Positions 48,926-53,710 are shown, numbered from the stretch's first letter. The stretch is 55,919 nucleotides of DNA from Candidatus Tectimicrobiota bacterium (GCA_016192455.1 JACPUC010000026.1:142902-198820), one strand, 5' to 3'. Notes: generated by a model from the sequence alone, not told the origin. Translations and numbers: made by a program.

Positions 48926-49612
48926 ATGCCGCTGGCATCGGCTCGGCTGAGCTGGGGCCACCTCTTCGGCAATCAGGCCCCCGTGGAGCTCGAGGTCGGC
49001 TTCGGCAAGGGGATGTTCCTTCTCAGCGAAGCGGCGGCGCGCCCACAGGTGAATTTCGTCGGCCTCGAGGTGGCCGGCAAGTACCACCACCACACCCTCC
49101 AGCGCGTGGAAGGGCGCCGGCTCCAGAACGTGCGGCTGATCCACGGCGAGGCGGGCGAGGTGATCAGCCGGCATGTCGCGGATACCAGCCTGCAGGCCAT
49201 CCACATTTACTTCCCCGACCCCTGGCACAAGAAGCGCCACAAGAAGCGCCGCCTCTTCGGGCCGGGATTCCTCTACCATGCCGCGCGCACCCTGCGCCGC
49301 AACGGAGCGCTCTACATCGCCACCGACTACGCGGAGTACTTCGACTCCATCGTGGAGCGCGTCGAAGCATGCGGCTACTTTGGCCGTCTGCTCCAGAGCC
49401 CTTTCGTGGAGCGCTGGCAAGCCTCGTTCCGAGAAGGCCGAAAGACGACGGCCTGCGGCACGGCGCCGGCGGAGCAGCCGCGCCTTCCCCAGTCCCCCCC
49501 GCCGCCGGGTGGCGCGCAGGCCGCCACGGACCTCCCCCTCACACACTATGAGCGCAAGTATCGCCGCGAGGGGCGCAGAATCTACGCCGCTCACTACGTG
49601 GTGCAACGGTGA
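48926..49612 (+). CDS. trmB: tRNA (guanine-N7)-methyltransferase
   Basis: LEVGFGKG, FPDPWHKKRHKKRR, ATDY..YF, THYERKY. The start is uncertain (alternative GTG 48863). Confidence 0.9.
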   Translation: MPLASARLSWGHLFGNQAPVELEVGFGKGMFLLSEAAARPQVNFVGLEVAGKYHHHTLQRVEGRRLQNVRLIHGEAGEVISRHVADTSLQAIHIYFPDPWHKKRHKKRRLFGPGFLYHAARTLRRNGALYIATDYAEYFDSIVERVEACGYFGRLLQSPFVERWQASFREGRKTTACGTAPAEQPRLPQSPPPPGGAQAATDLPLTHYERKYRREGRRIYAAHYVVQR

Positions 49613-49925
49613 GGCGTCCTGAGCGGCGGCCCGTCTTTGCTCCGCCCGCGAGTTGCTCCCCTCTGCCGTGAGCGCCAGGCTGCGTCCTCCAGGTTGCGCA
49701 GGGGCGACCCGCAGCTCATATGTTCGCTTGACGGCGCCAACCACGGAGGCCGGTCGGATGGTTCGCAACGAGGGTGGCAGCCTGCCCGCCTGAGTTTCGG
49801 CGACCCGCCAGAAGGGGTCTGGAGACCAGTGGAGGATCGGCCCCGCGCCTCCCCTCCTGGCCCTGCCCAACGTCCCGCTGCCCCACTATCCGTCCCATCC
49901 TCTGGTAAAACGAAGGAGATGCATC

Positions 49926-50510
49926 ATGGAGATGCCGCGCAGCAACCTTCCACACCCGCAGCCGCTCGCCGGCTGGACCGGGAATCCCCTGCAAGGTGTT
50001 CCGCCGCCTCGTTACGCCTCACCCTACGCCGCCGGCGCCGCCCTTGGCGGCGTCCTCCTCCTCACCTTCCTGGTGATGGGGCATGGGCTGGGCGCCTCCG
50101 GCGCGTTCGCCCGCCTCGGCGTGGCCCTGCTCGGCTTGGCGGCGCCCGCGGCAACGAAGGCGCACGCCTACTTTTCGCTCTACCTCTCTCCGGACCGCTC
50201 CACCCTGAATGCCTGGATCGTCTATGAGGTAGTCGGCGTTCTCGTCGGCGCGTTCGTCAGCGGCCTGCTTGCCCGCCGCCTGAGGTGGGAGGCGGTACGC
50301 AGCCCCAACGCGCACCGCAGGCTGCGTCTGCCGCTGGCCCTGGTCGGCGGCGTCCTCGTCGGCTTCGCGGCGCGCCTGGCCGGCGGCTGCACGAGCGGCA
50401 TCGGCCTCTCCGGAGGCGCCGTCCTGGCGCTTGCCGGCTGGCTCTTCATCCTCTGTTTCTTCGCCGGCGGCTACCTTGCGGCCGCCGCGGTGCGGAGGGA
50501 ATGGCAATGA
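49926..50510 (+). CDS. YeeE/YedE (TsuA) sulfur-compound transporter family, half 1
   Basis: PYAAGAALG, GLGASG, GG.LVGFAARLAGGCTSG.GLSG. Confidence 0.88.
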   Translation: MEMPRSNLPHPQPLAGWTGNPLQGVPPPRYASPYAAGAALGGVLLLTFLVMGHGLGASGAFARLGVALLGLAAPAATKAHAYFSLYLSPDRSTLNAWIVYEVVGVLVGAFVSGLLARRLRWEAVRSPNAHRRLRLPLALVGGVLVGFAARLAGGCTSGIGLSGGAVLALAGWLFILCFFAGGYLAAAAVRREWQ

Positions 50511-51109
50511 TGCCCCTGACCTCGCTGAACTTCTTCTCCCCCTGGCTGGCAACCCCGGCCGCCCTCCTCCTCGGCTTCGGCTTCGGCTTCTGGCTGGAAC
50601 GCGGCGGCCTCGGCAACGCCCGCAAGCTCACCGGCATGTTCTACTTGACCGATTTCGTCGTCGTGCGGGTCATGTTCAGCGCCGTGGTGGTCGCCGCCTT
50701 TGGTCTGGCCCTCTTCCAGGCGCTGGGCATTCTCGACCTGAAGCTGGTCTACCTCCCCCCCCTGGCACTCGGCGGCATCATCATCGGCGGCCTGCTCATG
50801 GGTATCGGGTTCGTCACCGGCGGGTATTGACCGGGAACCTCGGCCGCGGGCGCGGCCACGGGGAAGTGGGATGCCCTGGTGTTTATCGTGGGGATGGTGC
50901 TCGGGGTGTGGGGGTACGGCGCCGGCTATGCGCTCTTCGGGCCGCTGGGAGAGGCGGGTGATCTCGGCGTCATCACGCTGCAGGGCTTGCTGGGACTACC
51001 GACTCTGGTCGTGGTGGTGGCGGCGGCGGCCCTCGCCCTGGTTCTCTTCTGGCTCAGCGCGCGCCTCGAGCGCCCCGCCCGGCAGGAGAAACTCCCTGTC
51101 CAGCAGTAG
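50507..51109 (+). CDS. YeeE/YedE family transporter half 2, probable selenoprotein (Sec at TGA 50828-50830)
   Basis: ATGA overlap with half 1. GFGFGFWLERGG...D..V.RVMFSA...GG.LMGIGFVTGGY-TGA-PGTSAAGAATG.WDALVF continues in frame to TAG 51107-09, giving about 200 aa. Confidence 0.85.
50838..50863 (+). promoter_or_regulatory. bacterial SECIS-like hairpin
   Basis: GGCCGC(50842-47)-GGGC loop-GCGGCC(50852-57), extendable by CCTC/GGGG. The loop starts with G, 17 nt after the UGA. Confidence 0.65.
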
Positions 51110-51281
51110 ACTTTGCCGCCGCCGGGTGGTCATTTCAAGGGACTACGGCGAGGAGTTGGGGCTCCTCCGCGGAGAAATCGTGATTGCAAAGCTCCCCCCA
51201 CCTCGGACGTGGGTGCAGCGAGGTGTTCAATCGTCAGGATTTCCGCGCCGCAGTGCTCCGCCGTCGGATGGCAAGACTGGT

Positions 51282-53414
51282 CTACTCTTCCTCCACCTTC
51301 CGCACCTCGCAGAGATGCCCGATCAGCCACGAGGTTCCCTCGATGGGATCGTACGGCGGTCCGTCGGGGATAACCATGCTGATGTTGCTCTCGAAGCAGC
51401 CGTAATCGGGGGCTGGTTTCTCCGGGTACCACCAGTAGCCGTAAGCGGAAACGACGTCCGGCGGCACGTTTTCCGTCACCTTGGCTCTCTGCTTGCACCG
51501 TCCAAATCCCGTCTCGATCCAAACCCAATCACCCTCGCGGATGCCACGCTCGGCGGCGGCGCGCTGGTGAATCTCGACGGTGGCGACCGGCTTGGTTTTG
51601 CGCAGCGAGGGGGAGTGGCGCTGGCGGCTGTTGAAGAACCGTGCCTCGCGCGGGGCGATGAGCTGAAGCGGATAGGCGCGCCGAACGTCCGAACCGGGGG
51701 CGGGGCTCCGGGGCAGCTCGTGGTGCACCGGCAGGGGTTCGTAGCCGTACCGTTCAAGGAGGGTGGAATACAATTCCACCTTTCCGGTCGGGGTGTTGAA
51801 ACCGTGCTCTTCGTAAGCCTTGTACTTGATGGGAATGGCGAGCCGCCGCTGTTTCTTGAGGTCGTCGAACCTCATGTTCAGGCCGCTGACCTGAAAATCG
51901 AGAAACTCCTCGACACTGTTCCACGGGATAAAATCGTGCGGCAGAAGCTTGCGCGCCCGCATCTCCTTGGCCAGTTCAATGAAAATCTTGTTATCGTCCC
52001 AGGCTTCGCCCAGCGGCTCGATCGCCCGTTCGCTTGCCGGGATGTGCAGGGAATGCCACTCCGGTCCAATCTCCTCGCGCTCCAACCACGTAACCGCGGG
52101 GAGGAAGACGTCGGCCAGCTCCGTGGTGGGCGTCTGGAAACAGTCCACGGCAACGATGAGGTCGAGTCGGCGGAAGGCTTCCCGGACACGCTGTGGGTCG
52201 GGGGTGTTCAAGGCGTAGTTGTTGCCCGTGACGATGGCTCCCTTGACGCCGGAGTGGGCGGAGAGCATCTCGTCGATGACCAGGGAGTTATGACTGGTGG
52301 CCCCGACGCCGTTGGGACCGGTCCAGAGTGGAAACTCCCGAGCCCCGCGGGCCTCCGCCTCGATCGCTGCCGGCAGCCGCCACGCCTTGCCGAAGACCAT
52401 CTCTCCCCTGGACACGAACCCGTCAAGCCGCTTGGGGAGGAGGTTGCCTCCCTGTACGTCGATGTTCCCCGACAGGGCGACCAGCAACGTGATGCCGCGA
52501 CAGGCTTGCGTGGAGTTGGGTTTGCGGGTCAACCCATTGCGGGCAAACATGCAGGCCGGCTTGGTGGTGGCGTACAGCCGCGCCGCCTGCACCAAGCTTT
52601 CAGCCGGAACGCCGGTGATCCGTTCCACCTCACCGGGCGGGTACTTCTGAACGTGTTCCCGTAGCTGCTCGAAGCCGTAACACCAAGCCTTGACGAACGG
52701 CGTATCGTAGAGTTCTTCGTTGATGATGACGTGCATCATGCCCAGCGCCAGGGCCCCATCAGTTCCTGGCCGCACGGGCAGCCACACGTCCGCGCGCCCC
52801 GCCACCGTGGTTTTGCGCGGGTCCACGACGATGAGTTTGGCGCCCCGGTTGCACCCTTCGACGATCTTCTTCCAATAGGGGGGATGGGAAGCCTGAGGAT
52901 TGGTCCCCCACAGGAGGTAGCAGCGGCTGTGATCCAGGTCGTGATAGGCGAAGTGCGTGATCGGGCCCCCGACGGTCACATGATCCGCGACCATTCCCGG
53001 CCCTTCACACCACAGCGGCGTGGTGCTGACGATGTCGGGGCTGCCGAGCGAGCGGGTGAACAGCGTCGACATGATGCACCGGGAGGTTCCAGGGTATCCC
53101 GCGAACGCCACGATGGCTTTCGGGCCGTGTGCGCGGATGATCTGTTCGAGCCCATCGGCAACCCGCGTCAGCGCTTCGGGCCAGGTGATGCGGACCCATT
53201 TCCCTGCTTCCCGCCCGCCCTCTTTCCACAAGGGCGAGGTGACGCGCTGGGGTGAGTAGGTGACTTCGTGAGCATTCGCTCCCTTGATGCAGATGCCACC
53301 TCGATAGACGGGGTCTTCGGGGTCGCCCCTCAGCCCGCGGATGCGGCCCTCCGCAACATCCACCTCCAAATGACAATACATATAACAGTCGCTGCAAATG
53401 CTGTGGCGGATCAT
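51282..53414 (-). CDS. Mo/W-bisPGD oxidoreductase (DMSO reductase family, acetylene-hydratase-like, cytoplasmic)
   Basis: N-terminal CxxCxxxC...CIKG [4Fe-4S] motif, WGTNP, VVDPR, RPGTDGALALG, ADVFLP, FNTPTGKVEL. No TAT signal. Confidence 0.88.
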   Translation of the reverse strand: MIRHSICSDCYMYCHLEVDVAEGRIRGLRGDPEDPVYRGGICIKGANAHEVTYSPQRVTSPLWKEGGREAGKWVRITWPEALTRVADGLEQIIRAHGPKAIVAFAGYPGTSRCIMSTLFTRSLGSPDIVSTTPLWCEGPGMVADHVTVGGPITHFAYHDLDHSRCYLLWGTNPQASHPPYWKKIVEGCNRGAKLIVVDPRKTTVAGRADVWLPVRPGTDGALALGMMHVIINEELYDTPFVKAWCYGFEQLREHVQKYPPGEVERITGVPAESLVQAARLYATTKPACMFARNGLTRKPNSTQACRGITLLVALSGNIDVQGGNLLPKRLDGFVSRGEMVFGKAWRLPAAIEAEARGAREFPLWTGPNGVGATSHNSLVIDEMLSAHSGVKGAIVTGNNYALNTPDPQRVREAFRRLDLIVAVDCFQTPTTELADVFLPAVTWLEREEIGPEWHSLHIPASERAIEPLGEAWDDNKIFIELAKEMRARKLLPHDFIPWNSVEEFLDFQVSGLNMRFDDLKKQRRLAIPIKYKAYEEHGFNTPTGKVELYSTLLERYGYEPLPVHHELPRSPAPGSDVRRAYPLQLIAPREARFFNSRQRHSPSLRKTKPVATVEIHQRAAAERGIREGDWVWIETGFGRCKQRAKVTENVPPDVVSAYGYWWYPEKPAPDYGCFESNISMVIPDGPPYDPIEGTSWLIGHLCEVRKVEEE

Positions 53415-53710
53415 CCCCTGTCCTCCGTTCCGCGGCCTCCCCCCCTGCATCTTGCCTCGCCCGCAGGCACTACGTCAAACCCTTGAGCGCCGAAATCCTT
53501 CCTCAAATCATTGGTAGAGTACATCCCCTTCTCCTCACTATGTCAAGTCTAACTAATCCTCGGTACGGTTGCAGGGTGCGCATCGCTTGCGCCGGGGGCG
53601 CGCAGAGTGCTAGGCTAGAGCAACGCCGTCCTTCAACCCTGGAAGCCGCGGCACCCCCTGCCGGCATGCCGCGCATCACCCCCGCCGCCAGGCTGGAGAG
53701 GAGGATCATC

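Follow-up and report, generated by a model that had tools for sequence, protein, structure and literature searches.

A probable selenocysteine codon in one half of a split YeeE/YedE-type channel from a Candidatus Tectimicrobiota bacterium

Introduction

Does an in-frame TGA in a membrane transporter gene of a Candidatus Tectimicrobiota bacterium end that gene, or does it encode selenocysteine (Sec)? The question arises from a stretch of 55,919 nucleotides (nt) (GCA_016192455.1, JACPUC010000026.1:142902-198820; hereafter the window, with positions counted from its first letter), on whose (+) strand two genes related to YeeE/YedE, here termed half 1 (49926-50510) and half 2 (50507-51109), overlap by ATGA, which holds the stop of the first and the start of the second. 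The initial annotation had called half 2 a hidden selenoprotein, with UGA at a conserved cysteine position and a hairpin resembling a selenocysteine insertion sequence (SECIS) behind it. As judged from sequence comparison, it is very probable that 50507-51109 is one selenoprotein gene, mis-called, within a split YeeE-type pair.

Results

A single internal stop interrupts half 2

The frame of half 2 was followed from the ATG at 50507 to the TAG at 51107-51109. Its sole internal stop is the TGA at 50828-50830 (+), which is codon 108 and lies in the context GGY-TGA-PGTSAAGAATGKWD. That the open reading frame (ORF) track breaks at this codon while the frame remains open to 51109, as had been noticed before, was confirmed by translation. 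Reading through the TGA yields a product of 200 residues with the motif G-G-Y-U-P-G-T-S (U, Sec) at residues 105-112. Both genes matched the Pfam family PF04143 (Sulf_transp; cut-off 27 bits): half 1 (194 amino acids [aa]) with 83.2 bits at profile positions 177-309, and half 2 with 54.5 bits at positions 7-160. Jointly, the two halves span one YeeE-type protein, with the PmpA-like C-terminal half encoded first and the PmpB-like N-terminal half second. In half 1, Cys155 (codon 50388-50390) is part of GGCTSG and occupies a position of the Cys293 type (numbering of the Spirochaeta thermophila YeeE, StYeeE; see below); this column held cysteine in all 20 aligned half-1 proteins. Beyond this pair, the assembly yielded no PF04143 locus.

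When a protein collection was searched with the read-through product, 485 matches were obtained at E <= 0.001, nearly all of them ∼200 aa long. Half 2 was 40-52% identical to such homologues over its full length. An alignment (A1) was built from the query and 40 of the 120 listed matches, and in all 40 full-length homologues the column of the TGA contained cysteine, as the initial annotation would lead one to expect. Invariant residues flank codon 108 on both sides (G99, G101 and G106 before it; P109, G110, T111, G119, D122, G129, G133, F181 and E188 after it). The same search conducted with the 107-aa N-terminal piece alone returned four matches: the window's own cluster, a truncated Cys form, an odd chimera and a distant Cys form. 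Separately, a 116-aa protein (P0124) on a contig of 747 nt was found to share ∼37 identical residues with half 2 (approximately residues 29-65) between flanks that are unrelated on both sides; the contig may be chimeric, or the copy rearranged.

The ORF lists cut half 2 into a 107-aa piece and a 76-aa piece starting with the GTG at 50879 (50879-51109, +), and the fact that both pieces show as ORFs could be taken to mean that two genuine genes meet here, one ending at the TGA and the other starting at the GTG. However, the 48 nt between TGA and GTG code for the invariant P109, G110, T111, G119 and D122, that is, for the family's best conserved motif (PGT..G..D), so that the GTG ORF is the C-terminal part of half 2 and not a gene of its own. 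Moreover, none of the 40 aligned homologues is split at this point, and a channel made of three pieces would be devoid of the pathway residue. Two separate genes are, therefore, scarcely credible.

The genome encodes a Sec insertion machinery

Genes for Sec synthesis and insertion were found in the assembly: selB (366 bits), an adjoining selA (596 bits), selD (389 bits), which contains an in-frame TGA of its own, and, on contig 8, tRNA-SeC(tca). Whether such genes were present at all had been left as a check on the initial proposal. Bacterial SECIS elements are stem-loops placed shortly 3′ of the UGA, with a G opening the apical loop. Half 2 combines the features of a bacterial selenoprotein gene, namely, an in-frame UGA at a cysteine column, a 3′ stem-loop with a G-led loop (see below), and selA, selB, selD and tRNA-Sec in the same genome. 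Sec would, on this basis, be inserted at codon 108.

The TGA recurs at the same codon in other genomes

In the genome collection searched, no other genome of the same phylum was found, and all 40 listed "relatives" share only the domain with the organism of the window. In a sample of 40 genomes, 1 of the 7 others with a match (G031) has TGA at the same codon (context GFALLGG-TGA-PGQS). A collection of species genomes was further scanned with a degenerate DNA pattern demanding TGA at this codon, and the resulting stretches (at least 119) were translated through the TGA and scored against the A1 profile. Strong half-2 homologues whose frame reads through the TGA came from at least 38 genomes (E 4e-84 to 6e-33); of the 119 listed stretches, 3 weak and short matches (E ∼1e-6) were dropped and 78 were unrelated. 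The 38 are metagenome-assembled genomes (MAGs) labeled as Acidobacteriota/Terriglobia, Calditrichaceae, KSB1, Latescibacterota, Krumholzibacteriia, Nitrospirota, Chloroflexota, Spirochaetota, Deltaproteobacteria/Desulfobacterales/Syntrophaceae and "Rickettsiales". Together with G031 and the window, a Sec site of the Cys91 type in half 2 is thus predicted for at least 40 species genomes.

An alternation of TGA and TGY among relatives, which had been suggested as a check, was indeed seen. When 110 half-2 proteins (36 Sec and 74 Cys) were placed in a quick maximum-likelihood tree, the Sec label required 12 changes, compared with 30.4 when labels were shuffled. Branches with good support make at least 4 of the 12 unavoidable, and Cys and Sec have thus been swapped repeatedly. 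The protein of the window sits near L056 on a long, unresolved branch, and its own origin is not readable from the tree. Among 301 genomes sampled from the phylum of one Acidobacteriota MAG (that of L037), 31 had a match and only the genome chosen as the center of the sample had TGA, which makes Sec forms a minority there. One Nitrospirota MAG (G042, the source of L111) was observed to carry both a TGA and a Cys form of half 2 (C10:75280-75867 and C13:35919-36485).

The TGA is shared by contigs from three groundwater studies

Assembled contigs from four sequencing runs (X1, X4, X5 and X6) of three groundwater studies were compared with positions 50300-51200. In X1, a 12.8-kb contig spans this region with one difference, at 50477; in X4, two contigs span it; in X5 and X6, which stem from the other studies, contigs ∼93% alike span the TGA codon. 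No difference was listed at 50828-50830 in any of the four runs, which speaks against an error in this codon. An apparent junction joining 50357 to 50837 with 37 other letters in between (X1 and X4; 80% likeness, with a side of 21) was considered and rejected as GC-rich cross-matching from other organisms.

A SECIS-like hairpin is enriched in Sec forms relative to Cys forms

Folding of the RNA behind the UGA predicted a hairpin at 50838-50863 (+). Its apical stem of 6 base pairs (bp) is formed by 50842-50847 and 50852-50857 (GGCCGC/GCGGCC) and closed by the loop GGGC (50848-50851), and a lower stem is possible between 50838-50841 and 50860-50863. Counted from the U of the UGA, the apical stem occupies nt 15-20 and 25-30. 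Much the same placement was found in selD of the same genome, where a 6-bp stem at nt 15-20 and 24-29 carries the loop GGG. The initial annotation had described a GC-rich stem with a G-led loop 11-27 nt after the UGA; stem and loop were recovered, and the distance was about right.

The region 11-48 nt past the codon was then compared between 39 distinct sequences of Sec forms and 36 distinct sequences of Cys forms (TGY). Hairpins of at least 6 bp were present in 35 of 39 Sec forms and 7 of 36 Cys forms, and hairpins of at least 5 bp with G in one of the first two loop positions in 34 of 39 and 12 of 36, respectively. The mean z score of the folding energy was −1.37 for Sec forms and +0.03 for Cys forms (Mann-Whitney p = 1e-7, a value that overstates the difference and is no true probability because the sequences are related). 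In Sec forms, the hairpins of at least 6 bp begin 11-24 nt past the codon, and 19 of 39 have the loop GGUC; the SECIS element of Escherichia coli fdhF also has the loop GGUC. The stems vary by lineage (GGUGGC/GCCAUC, GGUCGC/GCGACC, GUGCUG/CAGCAC, GGUAGC/GCUACC and others) and occupy several registers, which is why hairpins were counted per sequence against Cys-form controls. A search of 49600-51300 against Rfam returned no RNA family, only two matches at chance level (E 0.55 and 0.8).

Several observations have to be set against the interpretation of half 2 as a selenoprotein gene. In this GC-rich DNA, the hairpin of the window taken by itself is within what chance would give, as 155 of 200 shuffled sequences fold equally well (z = +0.78). 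When a 5-bp stem is deemed sufficient, hairpins occur in 37 of 39 Sec forms and also in half of the Cys forms (18 of 36). RNAalifold found no consensus structure in an ungapped alignment of 36 sequences, because the hairpins sit in several registers. In the relatives from X5 and X6, C>G at 50839 breaks a pair of the lower stem, and in the relative from X6, G>A at 50855 (Ala to Thr) introduces a mismatch into the apical stem, the TGA being kept. Finally, the contigs compared hide rare variants, some of them end 10-30 nt from the codon and may conceal a difference so close to their ends, seven differences were not shown, and X1 may be the very source of the window. The weight of the hairpin, consequently, comes from the comparison of Sec forms with Cys forms and not from the window sequence alone.

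The lack of significance of the window hairpin, together with the fact that gene callers stop the product at 107 aa (P0122), is what one would expect if the gene were a pseudogene, that is, a former Cys form that gained the TGA through nonsense mutation or through an error of assembly or sequencing, and from which no full-length protein is made. Yet contigs from three studies share the TGA, 39 other genomes have it at the corresponding codon, the coding sequence downstream of it is fully conserved, the locus is the only one for PF04143 in the assembly, and the Sec machinery is complete. We consider a pseudogene highly improbable. The UGA could also be read through by other means than Sec, or not solely as Sec, either by a near-cognate tRNA inserting Trp or Cys, or by Cys-tRNA-Sec when selenium is scarce, which would result in a Cys-like protein. 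Misreading of this kind does occur at Sec codons. A hairpin that is positioned like a SECIS element and specific to the TGA forms, and the presence of a dedicated machinery, argue against it, and we consider such decoding very improbable. Decoding of UGA 50828-50830 as Sec is the interpretation followed below.

Sec-containing halves are encoded next to Cys-containing halves

Among the scan loci with at least 900 nt of upstream sequence, all 28 have a Cys-bearing half 1 (..R/GGCTSG..) directly upstream of the Sec-containing half 2; over all scan loci, the count is 31 of 38, the other 7 being cut too near the gene. Nine loci, all from Acidobacteriota or Calditrichaceae MAGs, encode half 1 as the C-terminal part of a fusion with a cytochrome b561 domain (PF01292 plus PF04143; L037:741-2147, +, and likewise L028, L066, L082, L103, L105, L109, L114 and L125). 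Wherever the region upstream of the fusion was examined (L028, L037, L066, L082 and L109), it held a gene for a TtrB/DsrO-like 4Fe-4S protein. Clustering of neighboring ORFs over 39 loci, with up to 4.5 kb per side and often less, identified TtrB/DsrO-like 4Fe-4S subunits in 15, PhsA/PsrA-like molybdopterin subunits in 13, NrfD in 7 and multihaem/cytochrome b proteins in 7 loci. In the three Acidobacteriota loci examined for this (L037, L066 and L109), a rhodanese-like ORF comes after half 2 (confirmed by Pfam for L037) and ends in ...GRGC(T/S) in L037 and L109. In Chloroflexota and KSB1 MAGs, the Sec-containing half 2 itself runs on into a C-terminal rhodanese-like domain (PF00581), with the tail GGGCG in L104 (5629-6531, −), likewise L065, and in L107 (2887-3876, +), GGG in L048 and L089, and GGCS in L077. 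The layout in Acidobacteriota and Calditrichaceae resembles a respiratory reductase module coupled to a Sec-containing channel.

In the window, none of these respiratory or rhodanese genes lies on the same strand. The neighbors of the pair are a PaaK-like AMP-binding ligase, a TrmB-like protein (Methyltransf_4), a convergently oriented molybdopterin oxidoreductase (51282-53450, −) and then a CN hydrolase. The oxidoreductase, of 722 aa, scored best with the NCBIfam models for Fdh-alpha (324 bits) and PhsA (281 bits), below the cut-off in both cases, and its start, read by eye, is without obvious signal peptide.

Discussion

A model for the split channel

Genes 49926-50510 and 50507-51109 are best understood as the PmpA-like and PmpB-like halves of a split membrane channel of the YeeE/YedE type. 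The hairpin at 50842-50857 would recruit SelB and tRNA-Sec, and UGA 50828-50830 would be decoded as Sec. The position of the residue can be read from StYeeE, whose structure chains 8j4c, 8k1r and 6leo were matched by the A1 profile (E 6e-6 to 5e-5): the Cys/Sec column falls on C91 (..LAGGC91ASG..), with a weaker, symmetric match on C293. According to the accessible part of the structural report (PMC7449682), C22, C91 and C293 line the narrow center of an hourglass at intervals of ∼7 Å; C91A and C293A abolish the function of StYeeE and C22A does not, all three cysteines are essential in E. coli YeeE, where serine is no substitute, and transient S-H-S hydrogen bonds with thiosulfate were proposed by the authors. 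The available sections of a second report (PMC11582611) describe short proteins of the PmpB type, which correspond to the N-terminal half and carry a Cys91-type cysteine, and of the PmpA type, which correspond to the C-terminal half and carry a Cys293-type cysteine, and propose a PmpA/PmpB heterodimer. The initial annotation had suggested a two-subunit unit in which half 1 contributes Cys and half 2 Sec, and this fits both the heterodimer proposal and the Pfam ranges of the two halves (177-309 and 7-160). The halves would, in line with that proposal, pair as a pseudo-symmetric unit equal to full-length YeeE. Along its conduction path, Sec108 would take the place of Cys91, which is central and essential, and Cys155 of the partner the outer place of Cys293.

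Such a pair would most likely conduct sulfur species (thiosulfate, sulfane or polysulfide sulfur), or possibly selenium species, across the cytoplasmic membrane, with a selenol, more nucleophilic and of lower pKa, taking the place of the thiol that contacts the cargo. Both the heterodimer of the two halves and the direction of transport are matters that we infer, and for the substrate and the role of the selenol in the pathway the chances of being right or wrong seem about equal. The initial annotation had pointed to a G(Y/x)CPGT cysteine used in sulfur-oxyanion transport; the residue does correspond to Cys91 of StYeeE by alignment. Several results count against the functional part of the model. 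Pfam analysis of the four neighbors revealed neither a TusA/YeeD gene, the absence of which had been stated initially, nor a rhodanese gene adjoining the pair, and in the assembly, which is 88% complete, no match to the TusA family (PF01206) was obtained. Scores with the NCBIfam models for TsuA were far from the cut-offs (20.5 bits compared with 400 for NF052577, and 39 compared with 645 for NF041049), as were those of the window proteins with the YedE/FdhT model NF033796 (18 [18.2] and 48 bits compared with 350). The literature searched, as far as its texts were accessible, contained no characterized member of the ∼200-aa split subfamily.

In a bolder version of the model, Sec108 would go beyond hydrogen bonding with the cargo and form transient Se-S or Se-Se bonds, so that the split channel would pass on sulfane sulfur or selenium species as a covalent chalcogen relay. 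In lineages other than that of the window, this relay would be part of a respiratory module, in which the b561-fused Cys half stands behind TtrB/DsrO-like Fe-S and PhsA/PsrA-like molybdopterin subunits and is accompanied by a rhodanese-like protein with a C-terminal Cys, either as the next gene or as a fusion. Selenium would then hand the product of a periplasmic sulfur or selenium reductase through the membrane. We regard this relay as unlikely. Whether the cysteines of YeeE only hydrogen-bond thiosulfate or join in sulfur transfer is an open question in the published work, as presented in those of its sections that were available, and a natural Sec at the central position would offer a direct handle on it.

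Relation to catalogued YeeE/YedE selenoproteins

Half 2 is very probably mis-annotated, as the term hidden selenoprotein had implied, but the family as such is already listed as containing selenoproteins. In the accessible portions of two reviews, YeeE/YedE appears as a selenoprotein family (Table 1 of PMC13188914, 2026; a table of PMC9312934, 2022). In the former, the entry lists a single Sec within GUxSG, names WP_012471001.1 as its example and refers to Zhang & Gladyshev 2008 and Peng et al. 2016; differing Sec positions are treated there as separate subfamilies. The main texts of the articles cited for the catalogue entry (PMC2398784 and PMC5029168) contain none of the terms YeeE, YedE, COG2391 or DUF395, so that the entry must rest on their supplements. 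Our literature search retrieved nothing linking COG2391 with selenocysteine and, for YeeE combined with selenoprotein or selenocysteine, nothing relevant except these two reviews.

Candidates for the catalogued form were obtained from a PF04143 search of 401 genomes from the phylum of one Desulfobacterales MAG (that of L123), 264 of which had matches. Among the 150 listed of 611 matches, 12 with an internal TGA were examined, and in 7 of these the TGA is at a pathway-Cys column. Five loci (L180 and L186-L189) have ..GG/DG-U-PSGHG.. (G-U-x-S-G) in half 1, and the half-2 frames examined carry GYCPGT. In the remaining five of the 12, no TGA coincides with a pathway-Cys motif; those traced (L178 and L185) lie outside the half genes or are the stop of the gene. 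Two full-length PF04143 proteins that also carry the TGA at a pathway position fall outside the GUxSG motif, one with GG-U-NIG (L184, genome G550; C293 type) and the other with KG-U-ATS (L182, genome G636; C91 type).

From the motif shared with these five loci, the catalogued GUxSG fits a Sec in the other subunit, half 1. G-Y/F-U-P-G-T, carried by the PmpB-like half, thus adds a predicted Sec site to a family already known for selenoproteins, one that does not appear in the accessible part of the published list. With one Sec site (GUxSG) in the portion of the inventory seen, the family is predicted to use Sec at either of the two pseudo-symmetric pathway cysteines, and each pair appears to contain one: the 28 half-2 Sec loci with sufficient upstream sequence have Cys in half 1, and in the 5 half-1 Sec loci the half-2 frames examined have Cys. 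In practical terms, annotation truncates the gene product to ∼107 aa here and in at least 39 other species genomes, so that counts of selenoproteomes miss it. To a specialist in selenoproteins, a finding of this kind will be unsurprising, and its functional part is one that we infer from sequence.

Comparison with known systems

The pair is homologous in fold, by profile match, to the thiosulfate uptake proteins StYeeE/TsuA (PDB 6LEO, 6LEP and 8J4C) and E. coli YeeE, with residue 108 corresponding to C91 and the partner cysteine being of the C293 type. PF04143 membership is borne out by the scores, and the Cys91 and Cys293 positions are both occupied as in YeeE/YedE proteins only if codon 108 is read as Sec. 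As described in the available sections on YeeE/TsuA, each of these proteins has 330-350 aa and three pathway cysteines in one chain and needs the TusA-like YeeD, whereas the window encodes two chains of ∼200 aa, with a predicted Sec in place of one cysteine, and the 88% complete assembly lacks a TusA match. An equivalent of C22 is missing from half 2, where the column holds the Leu of ERGGLGN. The hallmarks of the full-length TsuA/YeeE importer (a single chain, three cysteines, the NCBIfam score and an adjacent TusA-like partner) are, thus, not those of this pair. YedE/FdhT (NF033796) belongs to the same superfamily and is tied to selenium use as a putative transporter, but it is not a selenoprotein.

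Another known system is PmpA/PmpB of Serratia sp. ATCC 39006 and relatives, likened here by description from the accessible part of the source: as in the window, a C-terminal and an N-terminal half are encoded as an adjacent pair, each with one pathway residue. PmpA and PmpB are ∼130 aa long and both contain Cys, whereas the halves studied here are 194 and 200 aa long and one of them would contain Sec. The catalogued GUxSG form shares with the window pair the Pfam family, the predicted use of Sec for a pathway cysteine and, in L180 and L186-L189, the same split two-gene layout. Half 2 falls outside that form, as its motif is G-Y-U-P-G-T-S and the motif of the GCxSG type in half 1 (GGCTSG) retains Cys. 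In the catalogued form, Sec would be in the PmpA-like half 1 at the Cys293-type position and half 2 has GYCPGT; in the window, half 1 has GGCTSG and Sec would be in half 2 at the Cys91-type position.

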